Shown here in pieces: positions 28,577-58,200 of a DNA stretch of 64,000 bases. The stretch comes from Rhizaria sp. SCN 62-66 (taxonomy: Eukaryota). Under the pieces are notes generated by a model. That model did no database searches. It worked only from the letters and a program-made list of their open reading frames with translations, and was not told where the DNA came from. The stretch covers positions 1 to 64,000 of the forward strand of contig MEDY01000049.1 of NCBI GenBank assembly GCA_001724265.1. The letters are read 5' to 3'. Made by a program: the position numbers and the translations under genes. Every line of letters begins with the position of its first letter. Positions within the stretch are counted from its first letter, which is position 1.

Positions 28577-31500
28577 ATGGCCTTCAATTCTAGTAGCAAA
28601 GTCAGCCCGCTCGTTACTTCTCTCCCACGCCGCTCTCAACTTTCTCGCGCGCCCCCGTACCTCTGCGGCCGCACTCTGCCGCCCCAGCCCGGCATGTCGT
28701 TCCACTCGCCCGACATCTTACGTGCGTCGGGCGCTCTGCTTCCCGACCTTGGTCCTCTGCCTCCCGCAGCCGCAGCCCCCCACCAAGCCCCTTTACTCAC
28801 TGCGACTGATAGCAGCTCCAGCAGTGGCGCCCGCAACAGCAGCAGCAGCGCGTTCGCGACTGACCCGCTGCTCGAGCCCCTGGACTACCCGGCCAACCGT
28901 GTTTCTGGTCGCGCCGGCGCTGGCGACGACGGCAACGTGGACTGGCGACCCCGCACAGCGTCACGTCCCCTTTCCCCTACAGACAGTAACGACAGCGCAC
29001 GCTGCGGTCGTGGCGCCACAGGCTCCAGTCTACTGTCCTCGCGCCGCATGGAGCCCCAGAACGGGAGCCACGCTGCCCATGACGCCACCGGCTCCACTGA
29101 GGACTCAGGTGCAGTGTCGCCGACGCAGACCGCCAGCAGCAGCAGTGAGAAAGCGTAGCCCACGTTCACACGCATCATCATCAAGGCTTCGGACCAGCCC
29201 GAATCGGCCGCTAACTCGACGAACAGTAGCAACAACAGCTTCAGCAGCGGCTCTTTGACGAACTTGAATAGCGCAATGGCTAGCTCCGCGGGCGCGCACG
29301 GCGGCGGGCTCTACGGTCTCGGCTACGGCCCCTCGCCCTTCGCCGCGCCCGCGCCGGGCTGCATCGCGACGACGCCGGCTGCGGCAGCCGCCGCGCTCGT
29401 CGCAGCCGTGGCCGCTGCGTCTGGCTCCGGCTCTGCTGTCTTGGCAGGTCACTCCGCGTCATCGTCAGCCTCGTCGTCGTCGTCTTCATCGTTGACTACG
29501 CTGCCCGTCAAAGTGCCCACGCACCTGCTGCCCCCGTCGGTGCCTGTGTTTGCGCTCGCGGCCGACCCCGCCGCGGCAGCACTGCTGGGCAGTATCGACG
29601 GCTTTGCGCAGTCCAATAACCCATTTTTGAACCCTTCAGCGCGTTTGATCGCCGCGCCCAGTGTCGCCAACGACGACGCTGTGACCGTTGCTGTGGCCAC
29701 GGCGGCGGCGGCGGCTGCAAAGGCTGCAGCAGCGGCCGAGGCGGCTGCCGCGCTCAGTGACCCTATTGACACGAAATTTGGAGTCAGCCGGATAAATACG
29801 AACAGCGGCGTGAAGCGCACGACTACTGGCCGTGGCACCATGATCAACAACAACAACACCAGTGCGAACAACGCCAATCCGAGGTCGAGCGCGAGTGTGA
29901 CGGCCAGAGCTGCGCTAGTGGGCCCCTCGCCCACTGGCAGTGGCCATGAGCGTAACCAGTTATCATTACTCGAGGACAGCGACGACATCGCCGCAGTGCG
30001 CGGCTACCCGGCCCCCGCGCCGCCGCTGCAGGCCTCCTTCAGCGACTTTTACCCCACGCCCGCGACTGCGTTCTCACTCGCCGTCTCCACAGACCCTACG
30101 AACAGCGCGAACGGCAGTAGCAACAACAGTGGCTCAACCCCCGGCGCCGCCGCTGCAGAGGCTGCCCCAGCAGCGATCCCCGTGCTTCCGCTGCCCGGCT
30201 CCGACTCGGCCTCGACTCCCGAGGGCGCTGCCGCCGCGGCCGCCGCCGCGCTGCCGACCTTCGCGGCCGCGGCGGCCCGCCTCGCGCGCACGGCGCTGGA
30301 GGACCCGGCCGCGGACGCCGCGTTTAGCCACTGCGTGTCGCACAACAGGCTTGTGCACCAGCGCGCGATGCCGCCAGACGTGTTGGTACGACTGGCGACC
30401 ATCGGGGCCGAGCTCAAGGCCACGGACCCGCCGCCGCGCGCATTGTGGGGTGCACTCTACGGAGACGCCGCCGCGGCCACCGCAGCCAAGGTCGCCGCCG
30501 AGGCCGCGCGCGCGAATAACAGCCAGAACGCTGCGAACCCGCCCCTGCCGCCGCCGTCGCCACTGCTTCCGGCCGGTAGAGGCACCAGTAACAGTGCCGG
30601 ATCACAGTCGCCGTCGTCGCGTCCCCAAACGCAGCAGTCCGCTCGCGGTGACGCGTCTGGCGCCAACAGCAGCGTCACGGGCGCACCGTCAACTATCGAG
30701 CAGCGCACGGCGACGTCGGTGCTTTTCTTCGGGCAGCCGCGGCGCCCGCCGTCGCCGGAGCGTGACTACTCCCTCGGCCACAACAACGCCCCGGTCAAGA
30801 AGCGGCTCGCGCCCTCGCAGGCGCGGCTGCTCGGGTTGCCGCTCGAGATGTGCAAGGGCGCGGCTCCTTTGGCGCCTGCGAGCGCACTCTCGAAGGGCGA
30901 GGGCGGCGGCAAGGCTGGCAAGAAGGGCCGCCGCGGCCGCCGTAACCGCAGCCAGGACATGGACAGCGCCAACGTGGGCAGCGCTAACGGCAGCGGGGAC
31001 GGAGGGATGACCGCGACTGCGAGCGCCGCTGCCGCCGCCGCGGCCGCGGTCGCCGCGCCGATTGACGAGGAGGCGCTGCAGTCGCAGCTCAGCCAGGCCG
31101 TGTTCCCCGAGTACTCGGATGTAGTGTGGACAGAAAAAATCGAGCCCAGCCAGGTCGCCGCCAAGAACGCGTCCCAAGCTGCCGCTGCCGACAGCGTCGG
31201 CTCGCAATCTCCGTCCAAGAGGCGCAGCTCCCTTGTCTTCACGACGCCGAGTGCAGCGCAGGGCACCGCAGCAAACGCCGCGAGCTGCACTAGAGGCGCG
31301 CGCGGCTCCATCAACGGCGGCACCATCCTCACGGCCGCGGCCGCCGTGGCCGCCGCCTCCGCCGCGGCCGCCGCAGCAGCCGCGGCCGTCTCGGGCACGT
31401 CTGCCGCGGTGGCCGCGAGCGCTGGCGTCGGCAGCCGCGACGCGCTGGACGCCTTCGCGGCGCTCGAGGGCGACGACGCCGGCGACAGCGGCGGCGCGGT

Positions 31501-34500
31501 CGGCGGCGGCGGTACGGTGCTGGCTGGCACGGCGGCGCGCGTGCTGGCGGGGCTCGGGCCCGGCGCGGCGGCCGCGCGGCGGCGGCGCACGCCGCTGCTG
31601 TGCGCGCTCCCCGGCGACAAGGACTACACGCGCTCGCGTAACGGGCGGCGCGCGCCGCACTCCGCGCAGGGCCAGGGCCAGGGGCTGGGGCTGGGCGGGG
31701 TGGGCGGTCGTCGGGGCAGCGCGGGCCCACCGGGGAGTGCTCCGAGCAACACGGCGAGTACTCCTAATCAGGCCAGTTGCGACGTCACAAGCGCGGGCTC
31801 AGTGCAATTGCAACTACCCGCTGACGGTGGTGACGGCGATGACATCAACTGTACCGACGAAGACGAGGACGAGGACGAAGACTCCGAGGAAGACGATTTC
31901 GAACACAGTGACAGCGAGACCAGTCTGAGCCGTGCCACCAGCGCCACCAGTAGCACGAGCAACAGCACCGCCGGCAGTCTGAGCGCCACGCCGACGCACG
32001 CTGCACAGAGCCAGAACCGCGCTAGCGGCGCTCGTCCTGCCGGCGCCAGTGGAAGCGGGTACCACAGCGGCATTCACCCCGCTCTCGCCGCCGCTGCTGC
32101 CGCGTCCTCAGCCGCCCGCCAGCGCGGCAGCGGCGACCACAAGGGCAAGATCAGCGCCGCCTTTGCCGCCACAGCCTCCACCGGCACTCCGCGGTCGCGG
32201 CCCGTATCCCGCGGCGGCAACGACCCCGCCGTCGCGGGCGGCGCGCCGTCCCCGCGCAGGCCTGTCTCGGCGAGCCGCGGCCGGCGCCAGCTGTCGATGG
32301 CCCTTGCAGCCGCAGCAGAGGCCGCGACGGCCGCGCTGGACCCCAACGCCCCCGCGCCCGCGGCCGGGCTCTCCGCGACCGGGCTCCATGCCACGGCGCT
32401 GACGACGAGCGCATCGGGCACCGCCAGCGGCGGCAACAGCAGCCCCGCACCCATGCGCAAGTCGCTCTCAGTCTCGGCTGCCGCGGCCGCCGCCTCTGCG
32501 GGCGCGGGCGCGGGCGTCAGCGTGCCACAGGGCTCCGTCGTGTGCGTCACTGCGCTGCCCACGGCGCGCGGCTCCGTACTCGTGGTCTCCGACGCGGCGC
32601 AGCGGAAGCAGCAGCAGCGCGGCAGCGACAAGAAGCGTCCCAACGCGAATAGAAGCAGCGGTCGTCTTAACGCGGATAACAACAGCGGCAACGTGAGCGC
32701 AACCGAAGACGACGGCAGCTAGCCTGTGTCCGCGACTGTGCGCGCCGCACAGCGCAATCTCTCGACGTTTTTGGACGATCCGACCGGCAAAGACATCATC
32801 GCAGCCTATGCTTCGCGCCAGCCGACTGTGATCTTCACCACAGCCGCCCCTGACGCCGCCGCGGTCGCCGCCGCCCTGGCCACCAACGAGGGCGCTGGCT
32901 CTGGCGGCGGCAAGGGCGACGACGATGACGACGACTATGACGACGACGGCAGTGCCGATGTTACGCACAAGCTCAACGGCGCGATTGGCGGGCCCGCGAC
33001 CGACCACGAGGACGGCGACACGTTCGACGTCAACATCTCGCCCCCGCGTCCGACATCGCGGCTTGCCAGCCACGGGTCCAAGGCCAGCTCAAGCGGCGGG
33101 ATCAGCAGGCGGCCGTCGCACAACATCGGCTCCACTGCCAACGCGCTCGCCGCGCCCAACACTGTCCCCACGGCGGCGTCCGCGGCCGCCGCGATCGCCG
33201 CCGCGTCGGCCGCCACGGGCACCGACACCGGGCTGCGCAACACAGTCATCCCGGGCGGCGTGTTCGCGGCGTCCGCTGCGACGGGCAGCACGGGCGTCAG
33301 CTTCTCGTCAATCTCGTCGCTCGCGTCCGGGAACGTCGGCTCCAGCATCAGCAACCAGGCCCCGCGGCTGCAGCGCAACCAGGCCTCGGCGCAGAAACTC
33401 ACGCTCTCGCAGCGCCGGCGCCAGCGCACCGCTCCCAGCCACGCCGACGGCAGCGGCAGCGGCGCCGAGGGCGCCGACGGCAGCATTTCGACGGTGAACA
33501 AGAAAGAGTCGCTCGTGATCGAAGACGTCAGTGACATCGATCTCGGCATCGTCGGTTCTGCAGAGTGGCGTGTTCGCGCGCCGCACGTTTCGGCCGATAC
33601 CGCCGCCGCTACGGGCGCTGCCACCTCGGCCGCAGCCGCCTCAGCCGCTGCGGCTGCCGCCGCCGTCGCCGAGTCCGCCACGACTGCAGCTGATGCCGCC
33701 GCGGCCTCCGCGGCCGCCGTGCGTCTGGCGCGCGCGGCGCGGCTCGCCGCGGTGGGCTTCAGCACCAACGCGCCGGGCCCCGGCGGCATCGGCACGCGCC
33801 AGGAGCGGCTGCGCATCACCACGAACCGGCTCTCAGCGCGCGTCGGCGAGCTCATGGCGCTGCGGCCTGGCGGCGTCACGCGCGGCGACGTGCAGCGCCT
33901 GCGCCGCGTGCTGCGCCCGCTCTACGCGCAGGAGGGCGCCGCGGCGGCCGTGGCGGCCGAGGAGGCTGCCGCTGCAACGGGTCGTGGCGGCGGCGGCGGC
34001 GGCGGCGGGATGCGGCGCGCGCGTACCGGCAGGCACGGCAGCGCCGGTGGCAGCTTGTTCAACGACGATGATAGTAACTCAGCTGCTGCGGCCGCTGCTG
34101 CGGCCGCCGCTGCTGCTGCGTCGTCGTCGTCCACGTCTTCGGCCGCCGCGGCTGCTGCTTCCGCCCCGCTGCGTCTGCTGCCGATCGAGGGCCGCAGCTC
34201 TTCCCTCGCAGATGTGACCACGCACCTGCGCGGCGGCCTAACTTCCACTTTCTCCTCCATGGGCGGCACCGGTTCGTCGTCGGGCCAGTCCTTCGGTGAG
34301 CCTCCCGTGCAGACGGCGGCGTCCGCGGCCTCCGCGACCTTCGGCCACCACTGGCCCGGCGCCCCGGGCGCGCGCGGCACGGGCTCCGTGTCACTGCTTG
34401 CTCCGGCGACGGGGCCGTACATGGGGCCCGGGCGCTACGACGTCGCCGGCCACTCGCTCGCCGCAGGCGCGGGCACCGGCGCGCGCGGCGGCGTGAGCTT

Positions 34501-37500: not shown

Positions 37501-40500
37501 TCTCGCGCTCCCCGCCGTGACGCTCGTGCAGGTGCAGCGACTGTGGGCCCGGGCCGCCGCGCGCGCCGCCAAGCTGCCGCTGCAGCACGGCAGCGCCGCC
37601 GCGAGCACCGGGCCCAGCGTCGCGCACTCGCCCAGCGTCGGGCTCGCGTCGAGCACGAACGCCAGGGCCACGGCAGCCGGTGGCAGTCCTGGCCGCGTGC
37701 GCGGTGGGGGCGTTCACAGCCCCCACTTTGTCTTCAACGGCAATACCAACGCGCTTGTCGTGCCGTCTGCCACTAACTCAGCTTTCGGCTCCCGATCCGT
37801 TTCCCCTGCCGCTAGCTCGAGTACGCCCCCGGTGATTGACTTCAACTCGCCGCCCGCGTCCGTCTCCGCGACCGGCTTCTCTGGTCACAATACGAACCCG
37901 GGCAGCGTGAAGGCCTCTTTCCCCACCCCGTCAGAGCTCACAATCACCGCGCCCGCTGCCGCCGCCGCTGCCTCTGCCTCCGCGTCCGCTGCCGCCAGCA
38001 ACATCGGCTTTGCAGCGGCCTCCGCAGCGCGCGCCCGCATGCAGGCCGCGGCCTCGCCCGCCGACGGCGGTTCGCGCAACGCCGCGCCTGTTGCGCGCCG
38101 CGCTGTTGTCACCGACAGCGTGCGCGCGCCAACGCTGACCGCGGGTGACTTCTTCATGCTCCGCTGGCAGCAGGCCTCGAACACGGCCGCCGCCACCACC
38201 GCAACCGCGTCTGCGGCGGCGCTGGCGCTGTCTGCCGGGCTGGAGCTCGCCCCCGTCGCGGCGTCCGCGCTGTCCGCCGCCGCCGCCTCCGCGGTCGCTG
38301 CGGGCGCGTCCTCTGCCTCCGCAGCCGCAGCCGTGCCGGCGATGAACGTCAAGACGGCGCACGCGCTCGTCGCCGCCGCGGCCACGCACTACTGCGGCGT
38401 CGCGCCGCCGGCCCCGCAGCAGCCCACCGCTAGCGCTAGCACCGGCGGGCTCGCGTCGCTCGGGGTCAACAGCAACGGCGCGCTCGTACCGGCCGCGGCC
38501 CCGGCCTCGGCCGCCTCGCTTGCCGCCGCCTCGGCCGCTGCGACGGCCGCGCTGGGGCTGCTGCGTCTCGAGGCGCGCGCGCTCACGGCCGCGGACCGCC
38601 ACGTGTTCGTGTCGTCGCTCATCCGGCGCCGCGTCAGTGCGCACTACGCGGCGATGAAGGCGCACGCCGTGCAGCGCGAGGAACACGCTCGCTCGGTCCG
38701 CGCCAACGTCTTCGGCATGCAAGCCACCACCTCGGCGGCGGCTGCAGGCGGCGGCGACGCGGGCGCAGTGTCCGGCGGCATGGGGGCGTTGGGCGCCGCG
38801 TTGTTTGGACCCGCTGCCGCCGCAGCGTCTGCTGAAGCTGTCGAGAAGGCCTTCTTGGCCAAGTACCCGACTCCGGTGTACTCACTGCTGCCGAGTCCGT
38901 TCGAGATGTTCTTGTTCTTGCTCGCAGTTGCGCGGCTGTGGCTGCTCACTGCCCCTGCCGCCACGTCCCCTGCCACTGCGGCCGCGGCGGCGTCAGCTGC
39001 AGCTGTCACGACCGCTGTTGCTACAGCGCCGACCGCCGCTGCCGCCGCCGCAGCCACCGCGGCTGCGGCTGCCGCAGCGCCGGCGAACGCAGTCTCCTTG
39101 GCCTCAGCCGCGGCCGCCTTCGCGGCCGCTCTGACTGCGGCAGCCACCTCGGCTACGTCCGCGCCCGGCTCGCCTGCAGTCCCCGCGGGCCCGCCCGTGC
39201 TACACGAGCACACGGGCACCGCCGGCAGCTCCGCCGTTGCGTCCGCGGTTGCCGCTGCGGCCGCGGCGCCGAGCACCGGCGCCACGGGCTCCGCCGCGCA
39301 GCTCATGCTGCGGCGCCTGCGCGAGCGCCTCTCGGGCGTCGGCAGCGCTGCCAGCGTTGGCGCCAGCTCGGCCATGCTGGGCGGGGGCGCGTCCGGCGGC
39401 GGCGGCGGCGGCGGTGCGCACCACGCGCGTACGTCGTCTCTGGCGTTGGCGCCGACGCCCGCCAGCCACATGCGCACTATGTCCTCCGACGTGCGTCTCT
39501 CGCACGCCGCCAGTGCGCTGGGCATCACGGGCCCGCTCTCGGTGCCGACTCTCGCTGCCGCGGCCGCCGCCGAGGCCGGGCTCACCGTCACGGATGCGGC
39601 GCTGCTCGCCATCCGCGGCGTCGCGGCGGGCGACCTCCTCGCCGCCGGCGCGGCCACGGGCGTCGTCGCCGTCACCGCGGCGCGCACGACGCCAGCCGCC
39701 GCGGGCGCGACGTGGGGCGCGATGCGCCGCTGTGTGCGTGCCGTGCGCCACCTGGCGCCCGCGCTGGTCATGACGCTGATGCAGCGGCAGCAGCAGGCTG
39801 CGGCGACGCTGAGCCACCTCAACCACGTCGCTGCGGTTCACGCGCGCCGCCGCGGCGCGCTCAACGTGAGCACGAGCAACGCCACGCCCGCGCTCAGGAC
39901 GCGCTCCCCGTCGGCCGCCTCCGGAGCCCCCAATGTGGGTTGGGGCGCCGTGTCACCGCTCATCGCGCACAGCAGCATTACCCCGACTCTGAGCGCGATG
40001 CCGTCGGTGCTGCAGCACCAGCGCTCACTGGCGCTGAACCCCGCACGCCGCGGCACGCTGCCCAGCAACTCGCTGTCGCCGTCGCCGCTGCCTGGCGCGT
40101 CGCCCCCCGGCGTTTCGCGCGCCCCTTCTGTGGCGGGCAACACCGCCGGCGCGAACGCGAACGCGGGGCGCACGAGCCACCGCCGGTCGGGCTCTGCGTT
40201 CACGACGCCCAGCGCGGTGAGCCAGTACCTCCTCACGGTCACCGGGGCCGCGGGCTCACACGGAGGCACCGCGATGGTGGCCGCGGCGACGGGCAACAGT
40301 GCTGCTGTTTTAGCCCCCAACAATAACGCTGGTGGGAATAACCCTGCAACTGCGACTTTGCATGTGCACGTGTCACGCCCGACGTCACCGCATGGTCACA
40401 ACCCGAATGCAGCGAATGCGAGCGGCCGGACGTCACCCAAGACGGGCACGCACGCTCTGAGAGCGTCGGGTGGCAGCTTCAGTGCGAGCGGGCTGCGCGG

Positions 40501-41332
40501 GGCTCCCAGTAGCAGTGGTGGTAGCGGGATGTTGAACAGCAGTCGGACTCGTCGCAGCAGTGTTGAGACGCCTGATGTCGACGTGGAAGTCTCTGCAGCA
40601 GTGAGCGCGAGCACTGTGGGGAGCACTCCCGCGTCTGTGCTACACTCGTTGCGCGGGCAAGACTCTCAAATGGGCAGTGGCAAGCGTAGTAGTGGCTCAA
40701 TTGCCGCCTCTGCGAACAGTAGAGGCTCCGGCTCCAACGCTCAGCTGACGAAACTCGTCCAGGACATTAACACAAACAGCAAAGCGAACAACTTGAACGC
40801 GACTGCAAACTCGCTGGTGTCGCTCTTCTCCCCCGTTGCTAACGCGAGCACAAGCAACAACAGTAGTTTGACTGCAAGTGGCAATGCGGGCGCCAGTCAC
40901 GCGGGAGCCACCGGTGGATCCAGCTCCAGCTCCGGGTCAGGCTATGCGTTGCCGATGGATATTCAAATGCATCTGCGCCCCATGTTTGCATCGCCCACTA
41001 CTGATCCTACTCATGCTCACTCCAATGTGAGCCACAACATCGCTTTCAGCGGGCACAGCAGCAGTGAACTTGACGGTATCTCCACTGCTTTGTTGATGTC
41101 AACCCCCTTGATCGCGGCTCATAGCACCGCTGCTGCGGGCGGCCGCAAGGGTGTGGCGAACAGTAATGTTAATGTGAACGCTGGAGCTGTGGGCACCACT
41201 CCTCAGTTTGCGAGCGGCCGGTTGTATCTCTCTCCGGCTGAACGCAACGCTTTGCCGGTGCCGTTGTCAAAGCTGCAGAAGAACTTGGCTGAGATCATGC
41301 AAGGAGCAGGTAGTGCGGGTGGCAACGCGTAA
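28577..41332 (+). CDS. Giant single-exon protein (~4,251 aa if TAG is sense) with IQ calmodulin-binding motifs and PGP/SHIPPO-like repeats
   Basis: Track ORFs 28520-29158, 29255-32722 and 32726-41332 share one frame and are separated only by TAG (29156-58, 32720-22). There is no AT-rich spacer, and the two downstream pieces lack ATG starts. IQ motifs AAARIQRRWR, AASLIQRVFR and ILTCQRAVRRFL (~36460-36950). GPGRYDV at ~34424. Ends in TAA followed by an AT-rich 3' region. Confidence 0.8.
29156..29158 (+). other. In-frame TAG, inferred sense (Gln)
   Basis: GAG AAA GCG TAG CCC ACG TTC...; the frame stays open for more than 1,180 further codons. Confidence 0.75.
32720..32722 (+). other. In-frame TAG, inferred sense (Gln)
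   Basis: GAC GGC AGC TAG CCT GTG TCC...; the frame stays open for ~2,870 further codons. Confidence 0.8.
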
Positions 41333-42153: not shown

Positions 42154-44931
42154 ATGTCAAGTAATAATGCTGTTGAATTGTGCGTATCTGATCAGGGTAC
42201 TGCTGCGCGTGAAAGCATGAGTGGTAGCGACTTTCACGAGACCCTGAGCATACCCAACCTGCCGTTTTCGGACTTCCGCATTGTCGATCTGGCTGACCGC
42301 GGTGGCTATTCAGCCGTCTATCGCGCTGTCTACACACCCAGCGGCGGCAAACCAGCCACTGTGGCGCTCAAGGTGCTAAACGCACATGCTGATATCATAC
42401 ACAGCAATAAGGCTGTCATGGGTGAGTTGCAGATTCAATACGGACTGCGATCAACCCATGTTGTGCGTTGTCACGGTGTCACTGTGACAAAAACAATGAC
42501 TGGCGCATTCACCAATGGAAAAACCACTCCAAATGTTGATGGTAGTGGTGAAGACAAGTTCGTGATCGTGATGGAGTACCTCTAGGGTGGCTCGCTCAGT
42601 CGGCTTCTGGCACACCCCAAATACCGCACATTATCTAGCGAGGCACGCGTTTGGCTGGCAAAGCAAGTCACGAGCGCGGTTCGCACATTATCTGCTCAAA
42701 ACATTGTGCACGGAGACATTAAACCCTTGAACTTCCTCTGGGGTGTCGACGCCGATGACACGCGGCCGCTTGTCAAGATTTCCGATTTTGGCAACTCGAA
42801 GCTTCACGCGACGATGATGAGCATGTCAATTGCGCTTTCTACGAGTACGCCAGACTCTCACAATGTGCAATAGCCTTGAATATCAGCATTACGGTTGCGT
42901 TGATCTTGGTTTTATTTCACACTTGCAAGTTGTATCCATATGTTCTTTCTTCATTTGCACCCGATCTTAGACTCAGTCAACGGTACGGTGTCCTGTATGG
43001 CTCCGGAGTTGCTCACTGGCCGTTATCAACATAACTCAAAAACAGATATCTATGCTTTAGCAATGACGCTGTTTGAAATTGCATTTGGCGTCACGCCTTT
43101 TCTGCGCATGTCGAACAGTTCCATCATGGCATTGGTCACCAGTGGCAGCCGGCCCACGCTCGACATCACAGATTACAATGGCGACGCGCAGCCTGAGTTG
43201 CTGCCTGGCACAGCACCCTCGCCAGAAATCACCGCGCTAATTCGCGACTGCTGGGATGGTGAGCGTGACCGGCGGCCGTCGATCGACACGATCGTTGATC
43301 GGCTCGAAGCCATGCCAAGCGATGAAGTCGCTGAAGTCGCTGCTCGCAACTTCATGCTGCACGTCCTCGGACGCGAGCCGTCCGCACAGCTGCAACAGCA
43401 GCAGCCGCGCGTACCTCCGCATGTGCCCCCGCGGCCGGCTATGAAGCCAGCGCCAAAGCCCAATCCGATTGCGGCTCCATCAGATTCATCTCACGGCTCA
43501 CAAACTTCCGAGGAGTGTTCGACTGCTTTGCGGAATACCCAGGACGCGGGTTTCGCATCACAAGTTGTGTCAGCCCCTTCTTTGGCTGCAAATAATTTGG
43601 TATTGCCTTCGCCTGCGCTATCTCTTGTAGCATCGACGGAGAGTCCGTCCTCCGCATCATCATGTCTGTCAGCTTCTCGGGCCGAGTCCAGTAGTTCGGG
43701 AGACTCCGCTGCTTCTACAACAGCTCTGCGTGATCACTTGTTGCAACAACAACTTGATCTTGTGCTTATCCCGTTGAGGGCACCTGCACCTTCCGACCAG
43801 GCAGAGGAGCTGTATGCTACAGGGTTGGAGCTGGTTCGGAAAAGCCCTCAGGGCTACGAGTTGTTAAGGGGTATCGATACACTTGCCCAGGCAGCCAACA
43901 TGGGCCATCAGGACGCCATACGCTAGACAGTACTGTTTTGTTCGCGGCCGCAACATGGAAAGTACAATATCCCACTTGCAATGAGGTGGATGAAAGGGCT
44001 GGCTAATAATAGTATAAGTGGCTGCTACGAGTACGGACTCTGGTTAATGGCGCGGCAACTCAATCTTGATGAGGCCGAGGTCAACCTGCGCCGTGCTAGT
44101 AATGCTGGACACCCACGGGCTGATGGTGCGCTTGCAGCTCTTGATGCGCTCCGGATTGAAACAGATGCAGTGACAGATCTGAGTGATAGCCAACACAAAG
44201 AGCTCGTAACGCGTCTTCGCTCGGGCGTCCAGAGCGGTGATCCGGCAGCCGCGTACATGCTGGGTCGTGCAATGTACAACGGTTATTTGGGTCTCTCGAA
44301 GGACCAAGATACTGGCCATGCGTTGATGATGCGTGCAGGTCGGGCCACCGAAGGCGAGTACTTCTACGGCCCCGCAGCGGCTTATTACAGCCAGAACGGG
44401 AAATCTTTGCCGCACACAATAGCGGCGGCCGAGGCTGGGGTCGTGGAGGAACAACTGTGGCTTGGCAAGCACCTCACCGAGACCGGGAGTGATGTCGAAG
44501 GGTTGGGGTGGCTGCACGTCGCTGCTGACGCGGGCAACGTGCATGCGTTGATTCGACTTGCTGAGATCAGCTACAACGGACGCTGTGGCCAGCCAGTAAG
44601 CAAGGAGAACTCGTACCACTACGCAGTGCGTGCTAACGCAACAGGTCAGCCGGAGGGTGTAGCTGAGCTCGCAATGCACTACATCCTGGGAGTGGGTGTG
44701 GATGCGAATCAGGAGCTCGGCGTTCGATTGCTGCAAGATACTTCAACACGCACGGAAAATAACGAGGCAATATATTTGTTGGCTATATGCTACATCAACG
44801 GCTGGGGAGTTCAGCGTGACATCGAGACCGCGAAAACGTGGTTGAGGCGGACTCGTGAGTATCCCAAGGCACAACGCATGCTGTTCAGGATTGAGTGGTC
44901 TTCAAGTGACTTCACTACCAAGGTCTTCTGA
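42154..44931 (+). CDS. Tyrosine-kinase-like (TKL) protein kinase with C-terminal Sel1-like repeats (~883 aa, 2 exons, two in-frame TAG)
   Basis: Exons 42154-42844 and 42971-44931; intron GTACGC...TTAG, phase 1. Motifs RGGYSAVY, VALK, VMEYL*GGSL, IVHGDIKPLN, KISDFG, GTVSCMAPE, DIYALAM, CWDGERDRRPS. Sel1 repeats (AAYMLGRAMYNG, ALIRLAEISYNG, AIYLLAICYINGWGVQRD). TAG at 42583-85 and 43924-26; stop TGA. The 5' end may extend further upstream. Confidence 0.88.
42583..42585 (+). other. In-frame TAG at the kinase hinge (MEYL*GGSL), inferred Gln
   Basis: ATG GAG TAC CTC TAG GGT GGC TCG CTC. The catalytic loop and DFG follow in frame. Confidence 0.85.
43924..43926 (+). other. In-frame TAG inside a Sel1 repeat, inferred Gln
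   Basis: GHQDAIR*TVLFCSRPQHGKYNIPLAMRW: 18 open codons link it in frame to ORF 43981-44931. Confidence 0.8.
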
Positions 44932-45630: not shown

Positions 45631-46269
45631 TCAGTCGACTTTCTTGCTTCCGCCGGTGCCAGTCTTCTTCACACCAACACTCGCACCCGCACTGCCGCTA
45701 CTCTCCAGCACCTCATTCCTCGACGCGCTACTGCTCTTGGCCTCAACAGCGCCGTCGGTGGACTTAGCAGCCTTGGCAGCCTTGGCCGCCGCGTCGGCCG
45801 CCGCGAGGTCCCGTTCCATCCGCGCCTCACGCGCCTCGATCTCGGCCTTCTCCGCCGCGCTCAGCGGCTTGCTCGCCGCGGCGCCGGCGCCGGCGCCATT
45901 GTTGAACTGCGAGAGGTCAATGGGCGCAAAGGCCTTGCCGATGAAGAAGCGCACGACGGCCTGGCCTAGCTGGTTGGCCACGGCGGTGAAGAGATCGCGA
46001 TCGTAAGAGCCCTAGGAGAACCAGTTGAAAAGCAGCGAGACAAGAAAGCTGCTGCCGTACATGTAGTACACGTCGCGGTCCTTTGACGTAGCGAGCGCGA
46101 CGAGGGAGAGCAGGACCCAGAGCGCGAGCGTGGCGTGCTGGCAGTGTAGGAAGACGCTCCACGCGTAGACCTGGCTGTCGTAGAGCAGCACGGCTGTGAG
46201 GATGAGCGCAAGAATAATGCCGTGGAGGCCCATGCCAAACAAGGCAAAGACAAGGCGGTGGTCGACCAT
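45631..46269 (-). CDS. Small multi-pass membrane protein (~212 aa) with a charged C-terminal tail; one in-frame TAG
   Basis: MVDHRLVFALFG... has about three hydrophobic segments, then NWFS*GSYDRDLFTAVANQLG joins ORF 46269-46012 to ORF 45981-45631 in frame. Stop TGA. The start codon is uncertain because an upstream intron is possible. Confidence 0.7.
46012..46014 (-). other. In-frame TAG, inferred sense (Gln)
   Basis: TGG TTC TCC TAG GGC TCT TAC GAT CGC; coding-type GC3 codon usage continues on both sides. Confidence 0.75.
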
Positions 46270-46676
46270 TCGAGTGGCACGGGTCGCAGGGATACAACTG
46301 CTACGGGCGGCTGACGCGACAACAAGGAGAGTGCGAGAAGAATCAAAAGATCAGTTTGAGGAGGATTCTTGCAAAGTAACACAAGTGTGAGAAATAGAAA
46401 ATATACAAGACATCATAGTAAGTACGATTACAAGGTCTTGCTTGTAGGTACTGATGAAGTCACCCGATGCGAGGTTTAATAATGCGCCAGAGGATAGAGC
46501 AGTTGACTGGTGGTTGCCTTGGTGTTTGAATCGGCGACCTTACCAATCCTAGATATCGGTGGTTCTTCCGTCAGTCCAACTGTGACCCCGGATACAGATG
46601 TTAAACACATCTTATACTACCTTCTCTAAAATTCTTCTTTCTAAATCCATGTTTCTGTTGTAGTATCCTTCTTAGA

Positions 46677-47894
46677 ATGTTCGACGAGGTAAACGTTGAA
46701 CAGGTCGCCAACTCGGCAGGCCCCGCCATGCCTTCCCGGCCCCGTCGTGTACGTCTCATGATCTCGAGCTTTAACAGCACATTTGCGATTAGCGCTACAC
46801 TTTTTATTCCGATGTTTCTGTCTGCATCACGCACCACTCATGTTCTATTTCTTCTTATTTTCGCATTCGGTAACAGCCGCGCCCCACGGCCGAGACGTCG
46901 GGCTGGGACGACGCGGCCCCCGCTGCCGCGGCCCCGAACGCCGCCGCCGCCACCGCGCCTGCGTCCGCTGGCTACGCTCAACAGCAGCATTAGCAGCAGC
47001 AGCATCAGCCGACTGCGGCCTCTGTGGCTGCTGGTGGCGCCGCAACCTTCGGCCGCCGCGCCGGTGGTGCCAATGCCAATGACGCCTTCAATAAGTACGC
47101 AGTCAAACGTGTTTTTAATCAACGCGATGACTAACATGATTAAAGTACTCCACGATAACGTTTTCTTTGACTGTCTCAACTCTAGTTGTCCTTATCAGCT
47201 GTGAATCGCTTGGCTCCACTCACATCCAACTGCTTCCTTGCCTGTTTCCCATCCTAACGATTCCGCCTTGCGACTCTGTCACTGCTGCTACCGCTGCTGC
47301 TGCTGCTGATGCTGTTGCGATTACAGCTCTGGCGACAGGTTTGGCCAGTCCCGCGGCACCCAGAACCAGCACGACCTCGCCGACGACGATGCCAGCTTCC
47401 GCAACAACAACAACAACAGCGGCGGTGGGATCAACGGCAACAACGATGACGGCGGTATCATGAACATCCCGACGCTCGACGACGCGGACCACGTCCCCGA
47501 GCTGGGTTCCGGCGCGCCTGCGGCGGCCGAGGCGCCCCAGGGCTGGACGGCCTCGGTGCTAACTCTCGCCGACCTCGACGGAAGCGGCGGCGGCGGCCTC
47601 GCGTCCAGTCACAGCGCCGGCGCCGGGGTGGGCGCGGGCGGGCCCGGCGGCGGCGCCCCGCTGACGGCGCGCGGCGGCATGGCGGGTGGGCTGGCGGCGC
47701 TGCCCACGGTCACCCCCGAGGGCGTCGACCTGTCGCTGCTCAAGGACGCGCTCCTGGCGCCCAGTCTCGTCGCCGAGGGCGAAGAGCGCTGGGGCTTCGA
47801 CGCCGTGCTGGGACAGGTCATGCTGCGGCTCGGCGGGGATGGCGCGGACGCCGCAGAGGAGGCCGCGGCGGGCAGTGGCAAGGCGCGCCGGTGA
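46677..47894 (+). CDS. IFT43: Intraflagellar transport protein 43 (IFT-A subunit), ~285 aa, 3 exons, one in-frame TAG
   Basis: Exons 46677-46748, 46877-47094 and 47327-47894 (858 nt, phases consistent). Motifs SGWDD, FGRRAGG, IPTLDD, AEAP, LTLADLD, EGVDLSLL..LLAP..V.E.EERWGFD match my recollection of the IFT43 family. Stop TGA. Confidence 0.85.
46991..46993 (+). other. In-frame TAG within a polyglutamine tract of IFT43 exon 2
   Basis: CAA CAG CAG CAT TAG CAG CAG CAG CAT CAG = QQQH*QQQHQ, 38 codons after the exon-2 acceptor. Confidence 0.85.
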
Positions 47895-48383: not shown

Positions 48384-49852
48384 ATGGGCAAGTTCGCCCA
48401 ACTCGTTGTCGGTCCCGCCGGCGCTGGCAAGGTTCGTTACCTCCCTAAACATTGCTTATCCAATGATATCTCACTCTCCTCGTAAACGTTCTCTATCGTT
48501 CTCGCCGTGGCTCACTTCTTACATACACTCTCTCGTTTCCTTATTTGATTCCCTCTTTCCCTCGGCCCACCGCTCCGCAGTCGACCTACTGCAAAGCCCT
48601 CGCGACGCACTTCGAGGCGATCCACCGCCCCGCGCACATCGTGAACCTGGACCCCGCGGCCGAGGCGTTCGACTACCCCGTCTCGGTGGACATCCGGGAC
48701 ATGATCCAACTCGACGACGTCATGGACGAGCTCGGCCTGGGCCCCAACGGTGGGCTCATTTACTGCATGGAGTACATGGTCAAGAACTTCAGCTGGTTTG
48801 AGGACCAGATCGACGACTACAGCGACGACTACCTCGTCATCGACTGCCCTGGGCAGATCGAACTCTACACGCACCTGCCTGTGATGCGCACCTTCGTCTC
48901 CAACCTCAAGCGCATGGGCTACCAGATGTGCGCTGTGTACCTCATGGACTCCTTTCTTATTACCGACCCCACGCGGTACGTTGCAGTCTCCGCACCGCTG
49001 AAAACTGAACGCATTTGCTGAACTGAACGCGCTTTGTCTTCTTTATGCCAATCATGTAGGACTTTTGCATTGAACAAGTTTTTGAATTGTCGCTATTGCA
49101 TTTGCTCGCCGCTAATCTCACCCTTGTTTCTTTTGTTTTTCTGCTTTGTGTCTGCCTTGCTTTTGCATGGCTTCTGCTTCATTTGCTTCTCCCTGCGTAG
49201 CTTCCTGTCGGGCTCGATGATGTGCATGTCTGTGATGGCTCAGCTCGAGCTGCCGCACGTGTCAATCCTGTCCAAGTGCGACCTGCTGCCCGACAAGTCC
49301 GCGCTCGACAACGTGCTGGAGCCAGACACGCACAGTCTGCTCCAGTCACTCAACTGTATGTCGCATAGTGCACTCGCACTCACATCGCACTCGAACAAAC
49401 ACCATTATACTGCTGTAACACTGCCACACTTTATATGTCGACGTAGATGTTGTGATATGGTCTGGAAACATATTGCACACAATAGATGCGCCAGATAATA
49501 TATTCTCATTGGACTTGCTTTGTATTATTGTATCCATGTAAACATAACCCATATTCACTGTTCTCACCTACCACCTGTCCACTTGCTGCTTTTCTTTATG
49601 TTGTTTCTGCACTTCTCGTGTTTAGCCGAGTCCCACGCGGCGATGCGCCCGCTGAACTCGGCGATCGCGGAGCTGGTGGAGGAGTACTCGATGGTGGCTT
49701 TCACGCCCCTCGATGTGACTGACGAGGACAGCGTCGAGAAGGTCCTCAGCATCGTCGACACGGCGATGCAGTACGGCGAGGACACCGAGCCCCGCGACCT
49801 GCTGCCCGAGGAGGGCGGTATGGACGCGCTCGACGGAGGGGACAACTTCTGA
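48384..49852 (+). CDS. GPN3: GPN-loop GTPase 3 (~274 aa, 4 exons)
   Basis: Exons 48384-48431, 48581-48975, 49201-49355 and 49626-49852 (825 nt). Motifs MGKFAQLVVGPAGAGK|STYC, VNLDPAAE, LGLGPNGGLIYCMEY, IDCPGQIELYTH, ILSKCDLL, QYGEDTEP. Stop TGA. Confidence 0.95.
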
Positions 49853-51795: not shown

Positions 51796-52231
51796 AGAAC
51801 GGACATTGTCAAGAGCAAGCTGACTGTCGAGTGGTGGTGTTTCTATTTAGACGAATACATAGCATATATATTTGTATTTCTAATGTCATATTTGAATGAT
51901 GACGCTTTGTATGTTTGTTAAGAGGGTGATATAAGTCGCTTTTATGATTTGTTCAAGTGTCACGTTGGAGGTTCTTTCGCTTGCGAGGAGGCGCCAACTT
52001 CGCGCGGCAGCATTTGACTTGTATATCTCTGGACAATGTCCGTTAAACGAACTTCAAGTAATCATTCACATATTAAATTCTACATGTGTGTACGCTTCGT
52101 TAATAATATTCTTCATCAGATTCTGTATCCCACTAAATCCGCATCTCTCTGTCACCCTCCATTCTCCTAGTCTTCGCGAGCCCGATCTATCTCCCGAGGC
52201 GTCTTACGCCCGCGTTTCAACACACTAACAT

Positions 52232-55200
52232 ATGTCATCTCGCGAACCCATGAATAATGGGTCTTCACCGCCACATGGCCCAGAACCCCCGCCGCAGACC
52301 CCACTTCGGCCCTCTGGAGCCACGCTGCAGCAGTCGTCGTCCTCCGCCTCAGCTGCTCATGCGACCGCCGGCCCCACAGCCTCTGCTGCTGCCTCAGAGT
52401 CAGCATTCGCGACGCCAACCCAGCGACATCAAGCATCAAACTCCGCACACACATCCCCCGAGTCGCTAGCGCTGTCAGACTTGTCTATCTCGTCCTCCGC
52501 CCTCGCGTTCTCCCCTGCACAAACGCCTGCAGCCGTCTCAGTCCAACAACAGCAACAACAGCAACAACAGCTTCATTCTCATCAACAACAGCGCGTTGGG
52601 ATTACCCAGCCAGGGCTTATGACTTTGCCTTTGATCGCCCCCGCCAGAAACAGCGCGACCTATCCTACATCAACAGCTTCCGTCTTGCCGACCGCACCTG
52701 CAGCCACGATTGCTGCATCTGCTGCAACGAATGCACCTGGTGCACGCACCAGCGGTACTCTTGGTGTCGGTGACGCTGGCACTGATAAATTGTTGTTTTC
52801 GCGCTCGCGGACGCGGCCGGTCTCCGCCACAACTCCAACTCACGGCTTTTCAGCGAATCACACAGGGGGCTTGAGCGTGGCTCACACCGCAAGTGCTGGT
52901 GGTAGTGCTGGTTCTGGCTCTACAACCAGTGCTGTTGATGCAGCGAGCGCAGTTGGACCTGCACGCTTGCCGGCACTTGCCGTATCCGCTCCGCACCCCC
53001 AGTCCCAAGCACGGTCTTTGTCTTTCTCACAGTCGAGGTCGCAGCCGCCTCAGTCTATTGATAGCGGGACTTTCAGCAGCGGCAGCAGCCCCGCCGCGAG
53101 CCTCGGTCACGCGATGTCCACGAGCGGCCGGACTGACCCCAACGCGACTCCACGCGTTGCCGCTGCCGCTAACGCCGTAGCATCTGCTTCTGCCGTCCGT
53201 GATGCGGGCGCTACCGGTGAGATCGGCGGTGACGGAGACAACGCGACGTCGCTCAGTCTCACCCGCACTCGCACTCGCCCGCCGACTGCTGCTGCCGCCG
53301 CTGCTGTTCACGGTCACTCAACTGCTGCGAGCAGTCAACCTCGAGCAGGTGCGCCTGCGACTGTCACAGCGGTTGAGCCGACCAGCGGTGCTGATCAGGC
53401 GGGTTTCATGGTCACGCCGATTGACTACCACGGCCTCAACCGAGGCGCCGCGAGCAGTCCGCGAAACAACACGACTCCTCACAGCAACAGTGTTAGTAGC
53501 CAGAGCGTTAATGCTGTAAATGCTATCTCACCGGTAGCAGCAGCGGCTCGCCGGCTCCCGACCCTACCGCCACTCTCCGCAACGCCAGTGCCAGTGCAGA
53601 CAGCAGCGTTACCAGCAGCTAATACTGCGCTTGATGCTGGCTGCATCGCCAGCCCAAGCCCGAGCGCGAGTGCGAACGCCGCTGCGACGGCGGCGACCGG
53701 GGCTCTGGGCCTCCCTATTACGCGGGCGTTTGCCCCCGCGCCGCTGGCGCTGCCCGCCACTCCGTCACTGCCGACACTGGCGACGGGCAACAGCAACAGC
53801 AGCGCTGCGGGCGACGCTGGCGCTGCAGACGCGGACGCCAGCGCCAGCAGCGGCGTCAGCGTGGAAAGCTTCACGCTCACGCCTCTCGCTATCGCGACCA
53901 GACACGCGAATACGGCTATGAACGCGAATACTAACACAAACACTGCAGCAGCACCTGCCAGTGCAACTGCGGCTTCGGGAGCTACGACAGCCAGGGCGCC
54001 CGGCGCTGATTCTGGCACTAATGCGGCGGGCGATGCGATCGTCGTCGGGGCCCGCCACAGGCCCACCGGAGCGTCCCACATCGCAGTCACCGCGGGCGCG
54101 CCGGAAGACAACACAAGCTCCCGTTTCCCCTTCAATACACACACGTCGCAAGCTGAGGCAGAGGAGGGGGAAGACGGCGCTGATCTCGCGAGGGCCCGCG
54201 GTGCCGCGACTGGCGGGACACAGAGGCTCCGTCTGACTCTCAACGCTGGCACGGGGCCTATCGGCGCCGACTCGCATTTCACGCCACAAACAGCTGCAGC
54301 AACGACAACGGTGGCTAACGCTTGGACGATGACCGGCACTGGCCAAGCGCGTACTGGTGACGCGGAGCACACTGACCGCCTGCAACGGGCACAGTCGCAG
54401 TCGCCACCGCCTCGCGCCTTCCGCTCCCAGTCACCGGCTGCCGTCTCACCGGCTGCCGTAACCCAACGCACACAGTCACCGCAAAACGGACGCTCGCAAT
54501 CCCCAATGCACACTGTGCGCTTACTGTCACCTGTTGCTGGCCACACTTCACGCTCGCAGTCGCCTGTTATCGCTGCGCGCTCGCCGTCGCCAGCGGTGGG
54601 CGTGGTGCGCTCGCGGTCGCCGCCCGTGAGGCCGCCGCGCCCGTCAGTAGCAGCGGCTGTTGCTCGGACGACACGCGCGACATCGCCCACAACGACCGCT
54701 GCTAGACCCGCAGCTCATGCTGCTGTGGGTTGCAGCGACAACGATGGTGCCGGCGACGATGACGGTGTCAACGGCAGCGACAAGACGGCTCAGTCCGACG
54801 GCGTGACCGCTCAAGGCGGTTTGACGCAGGGCGAAGACGCCCGTCCGTCGCCGTGGCTGCGGTCCGATAGCCCTGAAACTGGCGTTTACGACTACACATT
54901 AGCGTATCTGCGTCAGTCCGACGCGGCGGCAACGCCGACTGCAACTGCGGCGCTGGCAGCGGCACCGCAAACCGCAGGACTGCCGCTTCTGCCGCCGGCT
55001 GCGGTCAACAGCATTGCGACTGGGGCATCGTATGGCAGCAGTAGCAGTCTCAGTCTGAGTACAACGAACAGTAACCCAGCGCTGAGCGGGAGCAGTAGTT
55101 TGATTCCCGTCGCGAGTCTAGCGAACGCTGTCGACTCTGGTGCCGCTGCGAGCCCCGCCGTCGTGCCGTTGTCTTTCCTCACGACCCCGGCAACGACGCC

Positions 55201-58200
55201 GTTTGCACTTGCCCCGCCACAGCCGCAGTCGCTTTCCCAACCGCAGTCGCGTTCTCAGTCACGCACGCAGTCGCCGACGCTGCAGTCGCGGTCAGCCCTG
55301 CTGCTGCCACCGCTGCACCCGAATGCAGCCTTCGCTTTGGGCAGCTCGAGTGCTGTGAGTAGCGATCCAATTCCTGCTGCTGCTGCTGACGCAAGTGGTT
55401 TAGCGGCGCTTGGCGGGCAATACGAGGTATTGGCGCTGCTGCGCCAGATTTTAGCCGCAACAACCGCGCTTGCCAACGCACCCACGCCCGCGGCAACCGC
55501 ACCGGCTCCAGCACTAGCGCCTGCACCGGATGCGAGTACTGCCGGAGCGACTGCCAGCGGCCGTGAGCATGGAAGCAAGGATCGCGCTCGTGGTAACAAC
55601 AGTGACCGTGACCGTGGGCATGACCGTGAGCATGACCGTGAGCATCGCCACCGCAGTGGCAGCAGCCGCAGTCACCGTGGCCACAGCAGCGGAGACCGCC
55701 ACAGGCAAAGCCGCAGCCGCAGTCGCAGTGGCCACGACCGCGACCGTGACCGTGAGCGCTATTACCGCGAACGCGGTGACCGTGAGCGCAATGACCGTGA
55801 GCGACAGAGCCGACACGCAGCTCGCTCTCAGCAACCGCAGTCACCAGGCGTCGCTCAGCCCACAGGCGCAGCTGCTAAAGCAGCAGCAGACAATGCCGCA
55901 ACAACAACGCAAACGGGCACGGTCACGGTGCCTGCAGCGACTGCAGCAGGAAATACGCGTGCAAACACGACAGCGAGCGTGATGTCGACTGTGATGCAAC
56001 AGCTCTCAGCGCTCGCCGACGCCACGGCGCGTTCTGTAGCCGCCAGCGATCCGAATGCAGGCGTGAACGCCGCTCTGAGCACTGCTGCTGCTGCTGCTGC
56101 TGCTGCTGCGAACAGCCCCGACGCTCCTGCTGCAGACGCAACGGTTACTGCGAGCTCTGACGCAACGCAGGCTGATGCTGCAACAACGATTGACCATGAC
56201 GCTATTGTCGCAACGACCGATCAGTGTTTGGCTATACCCTTGTCTCCCCCGGCAGCGACGATTACACTTGCACACATCAACACCGGTGCCACTGACACCG
56301 ACGCAGCGGCAGTGGGAGCAGAGACGACTACAACTACGGCCGCCGCTACTGTCGGGACAGATGTCGCCGATGTTGTTGCTTCTCTCGAACCTTCGAGCGC
56401 AACTTCACCTGAAGATGGACCTGTGATCACAGCTGCAGAGTCCCTATTCGGCCCCGCTGCATCTGCGGCACTTGCAGCAGCGCCGTCCCTGCTGCTCTCT
56501 GAACTGCAAAAGCTCGTCACACGCTACAGCAACGCGAACGCTGGCGCGCGCGGGAGTGACGGATACACTGGCGGTGCGTATCTCGAAGAGATCCACTCAG
56601 ACCGCGACTCCGTCTCCGACAGCGACAGCTTCTGCTCGCTCCCGCCTCCCGACGCGGACGCCCACGACGGCGGCGACGCTGACGAGAGCAAAGAGACTGC
56701 GGGTGCGAGGCGCGGGCGTGACCGTCAGCAGCGCAGCGGCCGCTACAGCAACCGGTACCGCCGGCGCAGCCGCTACTACAGTAGCAGCAGCGACAGTAGC
56801 ACGACGGGCAGCAGCCGCGGTAGTGACAGTGACAGTAGCGACTCAAGCTCCAGCGCTAGCACGAGCGGGTCTGAGCGCAAGAGCAATAGCAATCGCGGCC
56901 GCAAGAGCAAGCGCGACCGCCGGCGCTCTAAGCGCAACGGTGACAAGAACAAGGACAAAGACGACGACGGCGCAAATCCTCCTGAGCAACAGGCCGGTGC
57001 TGCCGCCACAACAGAAGCAGCGAGTGCGAAGGAAGAGGCCTGCCAGGAGGGCGTGTTCACCCACCCCACGAACCTCAACGGCGTTGTCTTCATTGGCGGC
57101 ATCGCCGACGCGCGTAACAAGGCCCGCAATCAGGCTCTTGGCATCGAGTACATCTGCAATCTCGCGCCGAACCAAGTGCCCAACTTCTTCCCGACCGAAT
57201 TCATCTACAAGTCCCTCGCACCGCCGTCTGACGGGCTCGTCGTGCGCACGTTCGAGGAGGTGCTCACGTTCATCGAGCTCGTCAAGGCCGCTAAGGGTAA
57301 AGTGCTCATCCACGACGACGCCGGCGTCGGCCGCGTGATGTGTCCCGTGTTGGCGTACCTGTGCAAGGAGTACAGCTTCACGTTGTTCGAGTCGTTCAAG
57401 TTCATCACTGCAAGGCGCAAGGAGTTCGACGTCCCACCGCCGCTGTGGCGCCAGATGGGCGACTGGGAGCTCGCTGCCCTGGGCTCATCCACCCTCGCAG
57501 ACGTTGTGTTCGCGAAGCGCAAGCGCGCGATGGACGACGACGACGGCATCGTGGGGTTCATGTCCGCGCGGCAGGTCAAGGCGCTGATGGACGAGTACGA
57601 GAACTCTCTCGCCACGCTGCAGGTCAAGGTGCAGCAAATGGAGGTCGGCGCGCTGACGGTCTACTCGGAGCAGGAGCGCAGCCAGGGCGACGTGCGCGAG
57701 GCCATGGGCGGGTTTCTGACCGCGATCAGCTCCGTCGTTGCCGGTGTGTGCGCCGCGCTGGATGAGGACGACGAGAACGACCACGAAGCGAACCCCGGCA
57801 ACAACGCCAACGCGAGCGGCGCGTTTGATGGCAGTGGCGCTGGGTTCAGAAGGGCCGCCTCAGTGACGGCCACCGCAGCCGCAGCTGCAGCAGCGGCGGT
57901 CACAGGCTCACCGCTGCGTCTCCCGTCCTATGGCGGCAACAGCGCGATGAGCGGCTTATCTTCGAACAAGGGCCGCTTGCTGTCACACGGCAACTTCGAG
58001 ACCGTGAGCAGCAGCAGCAGCACTGAGAGCACGCGCAGTCCGTACAAGATCTCGCTCTTTGCGCCGCCGGCCGGCACTGTGTCCTCTGCACCGGGGCAGC
58101 TCGGTGGCCAGAGCCCGGATGATGAAGCCTCGCCAATCGGCGACAGAATCAATGCCTCTGCTTCTTCCCCGATGGACTTTGAGGGCGGTGGCGTCCGACG

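Follow-up and report, generated by a model that had tools for sequence, protein, structure and literature searches.

An in-frame TAG in the IFT43 gene of an uncultured GC-rich eukaryote suggests that UAG is a sense codon, with UAA and UGA as the only stops

The gene for IFT43, a subunit of the intraflagellar transport A complex, contains an in-frame TAG triplet in Rhizaria sp. SCN 62-66, where it lies in the 64-kb stretch of contig MEDY01000049.1 analysed here (positions 1 to 64,000; hereafter the window). The question raised by this locus is whether the triplet ends the protein or encodes an amino acid and, in the latter case, which one. The original prediction held that TAG is translated in IFT43 and that the polyglutamine tract surrounding it identifies the amino acid as Gln. 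The first half of this proposal stood and, in our opinion, reaches well beyond a single gene: with a probability of roughly 0.8, UAG is a sense codon throughout the genome rather than a peculiarity of IFT43, and UAA and UGA are the sole terminators. The second half was not supported as stated, as the tract does not establish Gln.

The tract and the position of the triplet within it are as predicted. Positions 46979-47008 read CAA CAG CAG CAT TAG CAG CAG CAG CAT CAG, with the TAG at 46991-46993, and the comparison with the sister unit is likewise accurate: 46982-46993 (CAGCAGCATTAG) and 46997-47008 (CAGCAGCATCAG) differ solely by T versus C. A contig from a separate JGI metagenome is identical to the window across all 1463 of its bases (L001), TAG included. 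Moreover, the triplet is covered by one contig in each of four sequencing runs (X1, X3, X4 and X5), with no differing letters. These runs belong to three studies; the window itself may stem from X1 and X3, while X4 and X5 come from a third study conducted ten years later. Over the 7 kb compared, 8 listed positions and one insertion set run X4 apart from the window, none of them at the IFT43 TAG, and the diverged population that it samples keeps TAG at 42583, 46012 and 46991. (No contig covers 43924 in X4 or X5, nor 42583 and 46012 in X5.) The IFT43 TAG is thus confirmed as real and not a local sequence error.

The identity of the gene also proved correct. The third exon, whose open reading frame (ORF) spans 47310-47894, matches the Pfam family PF15305 (IFT43) with an E-value of 1.1e-10 and 42.3 bits, above the curated gathering score of 27. 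A protein search, confined to proteins of 102-326 residues, returned only the window's own truncated fragment and one relative with 60% identity. Scanning metagenome contigs for IFT43 yielded two loci from different samples, one per sample: the identical contig mentioned above and that of the relative (L002). The latter carries an intronless IFT43 gene as a single ORF of 228 codons (positions 29-715 of that contig) that ends in TGA and scores 47.1 bits against PF15305 over profile positions 23-132 of 136. When the three-exon model was aligned globally with this orthologue (the model used ended 2 codons before the true end), 141 identities were counted among 222 aligned residues, and the two are collinear from the MFDE..NVEQVA start to the C-terminal domain. 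The window gene differs from its orthologue by two additional segments, an insertion rich in Gln and His (Q/H) and one rich in Asn and Gly. The presence of two introns in one gene and none in the other implies intron gain or loss between organisms that share about 60% identity in their IFT43 proteins.

This alignment places the TAG firmly within the coding sequence, because conserved blocks flank it in one frame: a block containing SGW lies on its 5' side and an ATFGRRAGGA block on its 3' side, both shared with the orthologue. The predicted junction 46748/46877 is borne out residue for residue, as the orthologue reads PSRPRRPRP straight across the boundary between exons 1 and 2. Junction 47094/47327 has canonical ends and keeps the frame, but it falls in a poorly aligned stretch, and its exact position is inferred. 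The Pfam match in the orthologue covers residues 78-212, entirely beyond the point equivalent to the TAG, in keeping with the predicted location of the conserved domain. The whole IFT43 domain therefore lies downstream of the TAG, which must consequently be translated. The Q/H tract itself is a 10-residue insertion that is specific to the window's lineage and missing in the orthologue.

A single TAG in a single CAG tract offers no chance test on its own; the pattern across the window provides the test. When TAG is read as an undefined residue (X), long frames that are split under the standard code become continuous. The gene models then contain six in-frame TAGs but no in-frame TAA or TGA in about 18,400-18,550 codons, the range reflecting slightly different segment sets in two counts (the count was stated for five genes; the listed sites fall in four). 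TAGs 29156, 32720, 42583, 43924, 46012 and 46991 are followed by 1187, 2869, 95, 334, 126 and 46 open codons, respectively, and the runs of 95 and 46 codons terminate at introns. Intergenic open runs, by comparison, average 16 codons and reach 77 at most (n = 242). Besides the IFT43 domain, the kinase motifs HGDIKPLN and DFG and a Sel1 Pfam match each lie 3' of a TAG. Copies of the TAG flanks elsewhere in the window were not found, apart from short matches to the CAG repeat.

The terminators show the opposite distribution. All nine genes end in TAA (four) or TGA (five), and none ends in TAG. TAA ends the phosphodiesterase giant, the Ala-rich giant, a transmembrane glycoprotein and the DSPc-PDZ giant (terminators at 912, 41330, 51793 and 63563), whereas TGA ends the kinase-Sel1, membrane-protein, IFT43, GPN-loop GTPase and O-methyltransferase genes. 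By Fisher's exact test, the contrast between six in-frame TAGs (with no other in-frame stop) and zero TAGs among nine terminators has p = 0.0002; with the three firmest TAGs only, p = 0.0045. As a separate observation, TAA ends four of nine genes despite 70-90% G+C at third codon positions, which is consistent with TAG terminators having moved to TAA once the code had changed.

The public protein collections hold traces of the same pattern. Entries P0003, P0005, P0006, P0014 and P0058 are fragments of this organism's proteins that begin or end at a TAG, and they are the output of prokaryote-style gene callers working with the standard stop set. For the small membrane-protein gene with TAG 46012, a protein search returned only the gene's own fragment, and a Pfam search gave nothing even at E-values up to 10.

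The organism would then be an uncultured, GC-rich, intron-poor, flagellum-bearing eukaryote, known from metagenomes of wastewater and bioreactors, whose nuclear UAG is decoded as an amino acid throughout. The IFT43 TAG would be an ordinary sense codon, most probably produced by a C-to-T change of CAG in a young CAG/CAT repeat. By analogy with known UAG-only codes, a tRNA with anticodon CUA would pair with UAG and not with UAA; it could have arisen from a tRNA-Gln(CUG) or tRNA-Glu(CUC) gene by one anticodon change, and eRF1 may have lost or weakened its recognition of G at the third stop position. This combination of tRNA(CUA) and altered eRF1 follows Panek et al. 2017 (PMC5304391).

Several observations weigh against genome-wide reassignment. 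As regards mechanism, ARAGORN and Rfam detected no tRNA or other RNA genes in the 64-kb window, nor did Rfam in the orthologue's contig. The sample is small, with 64 kb and nine terminators. Between 61 and 63% of possible nonsense changes in these genes, which are rich in G+C at third codon positions (GC3), would produce TAG, so that six TAGs among six in-frame stops, taken alone, have p of about 0.05-0.065. Two of the six lie in one kinase gene with lower GC3 (0.55-0.58), and in run X4 this gene has a frame-shifting 5-nt insertion (TGACA) after 42389, in exon 42154-42844; this copy may be decaying. TAG 29156 may precede the true start of its gene. Sense TAG is also rare, with 6 in about 18,500 codons (about 0.03%) and none in the ORFs of 8,288 and 3,778 codons, a share far below the 8-32% of synonymous codons in the known cases. 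Finally, the RNA-library contigs from X5, a polyA metatranscriptome, are of low depth and unspliced, and may represent DNA or pre-mRNA: one (46492-46963) runs across intron 1, another (46945-47186, TAG unchanged) runs into intron 2, and the intergenic promoter region is covered as well. Splice joints were not seen in any run examined. The only joints reported lie in GC-rich, repeat-like sequence, with sides of just 20-23 letters, and were disregarded.

As to the TGACA insertion itself, two origins come into question: a genuine polymorphism, the gene being a dispensable member of its family, or an error of assembly, the depth being 7.

Which amino acid the codon specifies is much less clear than its sense character. 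In our estimate Gln has about an even chance, Glu is possible but clearly behind it, and Lys, Asp or another residue is less probable again. Comparison does not establish that the tract identifies Gln: no homologue speaks for the residue at the IFT43 TAG, because the Q/H tract is an insertion that the orthologue lacks, and at the two alignable TAG sites none of the 12 homologue residues is Gln. What the tract offers is context within the window's own genes. Q/H context was defined as at least five of six flanking residues being Q or H, at least four of these being Q. The 61 positions in such context comprise Gln (39), Lys (4), Pro (4), Ser, Leu and His (3 each), Ala, Glu, Val and Arg (1 each) and TAG (1). 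Thus, 5.4% of Gln codons (39/724) lie in Q/H context, compared with 1.1% for Lys, 0.22% for Leu and 0.19% for Glu (1/537). With one of six TAGs in strict Q/H context, Gln is favoured over Glu about 22-fold, in a hand calculation that takes the six TAGs to be sampled from the positions at which the encoded residue occurs and depends on one site. This figure is an upper bound, both because no single change within a CAG run is likelier than CAG to TAG, irrespective of the meaning of TAG, and because a young disordered insertion would tolerate most residues.

Homologues speak for a different residue. The most serious competing explanation accepts that TAG is sense but takes it to mean Glu, through a tRNA-Glu with anticodon CUA, so that the IFT43 TAG would be a tolerated Gln-to-Glu change in a disordered Q/H insertion; we consider it tentative, with perhaps a quarter of the weight. 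At the kinase site (42583), seven homologues that are 42-66% identical carry A, E, D, A, D, E and D, and at the Sel1 site (43924) the closest orthologue (about 50% identical) carries E, while four more distant ones carry L, A, M and K. Gln is absent from both columns (0/7 and 0/5), but there are only two such sites and both columns are variable. A likelihood test after Panek et al. was conducted with every residue tried at the TAG (LG+G4, fixed tree; the window fragment P0006 was dropped and columns with less than 60% occupancy were removed). Asp and Glu were best over the two sites; relative to them, the log-likelihood (lnL) was -1.4 for Ala, -2.8 for Lys, -3.01 for Gln, -4.57 for Leu, -6.6 for Tyr and -9.8 for Trp. 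Leu, Tyr and Trp are unlikely, and Glu is favoured over Gln about 20-fold at these sites. It should be noted that Glu does occur within Q runs of this genome, as in QQEQQQ of the phosphodiesterase ORF.

The evidence from context and that from homologues therefore cancel out. Anticodons of Gln and Glu each need one change to become CUA, and those of Asp need two. By analogy, precedent among UAG reassignments favours Gln: in PMC5304391 and PMC11687900, the known UAG-only reassignments go to Gln or Leu, which counts against Glu. A code with UAG for Glu and with UAA and UGA as sole stops, in a GC-rich non-ciliate eukaryote, is on balance doubtful. To our knowledge, no NCBI table contains such a code.

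Closer comparison with published codes was made. PMC5304391 describes UAG-only reassignment, with UAA and UGA as stops, in the rhizarian exLh (Leu) and in Iotanema spirale (Gln); PMC11687900 describes it in phyllopharyngean ciliates, once to Leu and twice to Gln. Iotanema resembles the window in that UAG alone is sense while UAA and UGA are stops, and its code table would be that of the window if Gln is right. In both, UAG is a minor codon: it makes up about 8% of Gln codons in Iotanema, but only about 0.8% in the window if it means Gln (6 vs 536 CAG and 187 CAA). For its 6 sense TAGs, the window has 723 Gln or 533 Glu codons. Iotanema, an anaerobic fornicate, was studied through its transcriptome, and its code assignment draws on many conserved columns, whereas the window is GC-rich (GC3 0.55-0.92) and has two alignable sites.

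In exLh (Sainouroidea), where UAG encodes Leu, 384 of 384 in-frame stops are UAG and the terminators are UAA (56) and UGA (15) (PMC5304391). This pattern matches that of the window, with its six in-frame TAGs and nine TAA or TGA ends, but Leu is disfavoured in the window, and no evidence from it assigns the organism to Rhizaria. The phyllopharyngean case (McGowan et al. 2024, PMC11687900) also comes from metagenome assemblies, with Leu in three TARA metagenome-assembled genomes and Gln in both Hartmannula sinica and Trochilia petrani; the paper reports that the use of UAA as a stop rises after the change, which may be compared with TAA at four of nine ends in the window despite high GC3. In those ciliates UAG is common, accounting for 6.5-32% of the synonymous codons and occurring internally in 78-91% of genes, whereas TAG is rare in the window. 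In our judgement the window is not ciliate-like, given that the contig extends over 64 kb, that its ORFs reach 8,296 codons and that its coding sequence is GC-rich.

UAG reportedly encodes Glu in peritrich ciliates and in Blastocrithidia, where UAA is said to be reassigned too. In the ciliate PL0344, UAA and UAG reportedly code for different amino acids, UAA again being reassigned. The UAG-Glu codes would share their amino acid with the window if TAG means Glu there, but the window differs in that TAA ends four of nine genes. A literature search found no report on this organism.

A second alternative is that TAG is still a stop that is read through often enough to be useful, whether because a near-cognate tRNA decodes it or because the code is ambiguous and depends on context, so that full-length protein would form only in part. 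The rarity of TAG in coding sequence would be expected if read-through is costly. The six TAGs are followed by C, C, G, A, G and C, and a C after a stop codon weakens termination; three of six sites would thus qualify. Yet the six sites share neither a common read-through context nor a downstream motif, and TAG is absent from all nine gene ends. Moreover, the kinase-Sel1 gene would need two read-through events, and the giant Ala-rich ORF probably two, while each truncated IFT43 product would be without its entire domain. Read-through is in our view improbable.

It is considerably less probable that the interrupted genes, or at least this copy of IFT43, are pseudogenes and that an intact IFT43 paralogue lies elsewhere in the genome. 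Within a CAG run, nonsense mutation would be expected to turn CAG into TAG, and TAG is the outcome of 61-63% of the possible nonsense changes in these genes, as noted above. The kinase gene, with its two TAGs, lower GC3 and 5-nt insertion in X4, also suits this explanation. Furthermore, a second IFT43-like gene, 60% identical, does exist in another metagenome (L002) and might come from the same organism. Against this, the two IFT43 loci come from different samples, each of which gave one of the two. The neighbouring genes (stated as five) would all have to be broken, each solely by TAG. Nonsense changes make up only 2.2% of possible single substitutions, but the gene models of the window contain no frameshift, no in-frame TAA and no in-frame TGA in about 18,500 codons, and again no gene ends in TAG, a pattern that decay would not be expected to leave. 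The start, stop and splice sites of IFT43 and its GC3 bias (0.75-0.90) are intact, and populations sampled at a ten-year interval are fixed for the TAGs.

Removal or alteration of the TAG in RNA, by a 3' splice site at cattAG|, a small intron within exon 2 or U-to-C editing to CAG, can scarcely be credited: if the TAG supplied the acceptor AG, giving intron 46749-46993, the frame would be retained, 46877-46993 being 117 nt, but this would delete the PRP..SGW segment that is conserved in the intronless orthologue, together with 39 codons before the TAG that have coding composition (GC3 0.85), and splicing in IFT43 would leave the TAGs of the kinase motif and the 4,000-codon ORF unexplained. As for small introns, upstream GT occurs only at 46897 (97 nt, GTCGGG) and 46962 (32 nt, GTCCGC), neither of which resembles the five intron models (126-232 nt, GT[AT]CG[TC]), and the former would remove SGW. 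The TAG acceptor and the small introns were thus rejected for loss of PRP..SGW and for atypical GT contexts. The RNA-library contig 46945-47186 has the TAG unaltered, which is weak evidence against editing, this contig being unspliced.

Reassignment of UAG alone has precedents but is rare. Very few eukaryotic lineages are known to give UAG and UAA different meanings (PMC5304391, PMC11687900), and another independent case would help to test ideas on how such codes originate. The base composition of the present genome is of particular interest in this respect: in a GC-rich genome one would expect UAG to terminate many genes, and the rarity of sense UAG may mark an early stage of reassignment. 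If TAG means Glu, the code itself would be new, in a genome whose composition is opposite to that of the AT-rich genomes in which stop reassignment is usual. Furthermore, eukaryotic bins from wastewater need code-aware gene calling, because the genes of this organism appear in public protein sets as fragments truncated at TAG.

Table 1. Coordinates of the in-frame TAGs, the IFT43 gene and other features of the window
Feature	Position	Strand	Remarks
In-frame TAG, IFT43 exon 2	46991..46993	+	Codon 63 of gene model
Q/H tract, QQQH-TAG-QQQHQ	46979..47008	+	Sits in 10-residue gap of L002 orthologue
IFT43 exon 1, ATG at 46677, 24 codons	46677..46748	+	16/19 aligned residues identical to L002
IFT43 intron 1, 128 nt, GTACGT...AACAG	46749..46876	+	Missing from L002, where PSRPRR and PRP are contiguous
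IFT43 exon 2, 218 nt, holds TAG	46877..47094	+	33/55 aligned residues identical to L002; GC3 0.75
IFT43 intron 2, 232 nt, GTACGC...TTACAG	47095..47326	+	Canonical ends and preserved frame
IFT43 exon 3 with Pfam domain, TGA at 47892-47894 then second TGA	47327..47894	+	92/148 aligned residues identical to L002
In-frame TAG, kinase subdomain V (VIVMEYL-TAG-GGSLSRLL), kinase-Sel1 exon 42154-42844	42583..42585	+	HGDIKPLN and DFG downstream
In-frame TAG between kinase and Sel1 repeats, kinase-Sel1 exon 42971-44931 (TGA at 44929)	43924..43926	+	334 open codons next; Sel1 Pfam match downstream
In-frame TAG, small membrane-protein gene 45631-46269 (stop TGA)	46012..46014	-	112 open codons before, 126 after; GC3 0.79 and 0.84
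In-frame TAG, giant Ala-rich ORF (TAA end at 41330)	32720..32722	+	One frame, open for 1187 codons before the TAG and 2869 beyond it
Probable in-frame TAG near 5' end, giant Ala-rich ORF	29156..29158	+	226 open codons before; gene start unsure, less firm
Giant, apparently intronless ORF, 8,296 codons, PDEase_I domain	912-25802	-	Mostly low-complexity Ala/Ser/Gln-rich
Family-3 O-methyltransferase gene	26503-28180	-	Methyltransf_3, 87 bits; without internal TAG
Giant, apparently intronless Ala-rich ORF, about 4,060-4,290 codons, no domain found	28376-41332	+	Mostly low-complexity Ala/Ser/Gln-rich
GPN-loop GTPase 2-like gene, multi-exon	48386-49852	+	Without internal TAG
Giant, apparently intronless ORF, 3,778 codons, DSPc and PDZ	52229-63565	+	Mostly low-complexity Ala/Ser/Gln-rich

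The remaining features of the window (Table 1) are those of a eukaryotic genome with few introns, in which coding GC3 ranges from 0.55 to 0.92 and spacers have about 52% GC. Atlas protein clusters were matched by two of its genes, those for GPN-loop GTPase 2 and IFT43, but their taxa gave no useful indication of the lineage. The five intron models all start with GT[AT]CG[TC], namely GTACGY at 46749, 47095, 42845 and 48976 and GTTCGT at 48432. The GTACGY hexamer as such is not enriched in the window, with 40 occurrences found against 63 expected. Such an extended 5' splice site could be of use in placing the lineage.

A profile search for the kinase returned 43 loci in genome contigs and 24 in viral contigs, all of which are distant kinases from outside this lineage, with identities of 22-51% that peak in short matches. 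The prokaryotic and viral collections apparently contain only distant relatives (below about 50%) of the kinase-Sel1 family. The gene at 42154-44931, a kinase with C-terminal Sel1 repeats, belongs to a family with members P0007-P0013 and P0015-P0019, which are 42-66% identical and lie on other metagenome contigs.

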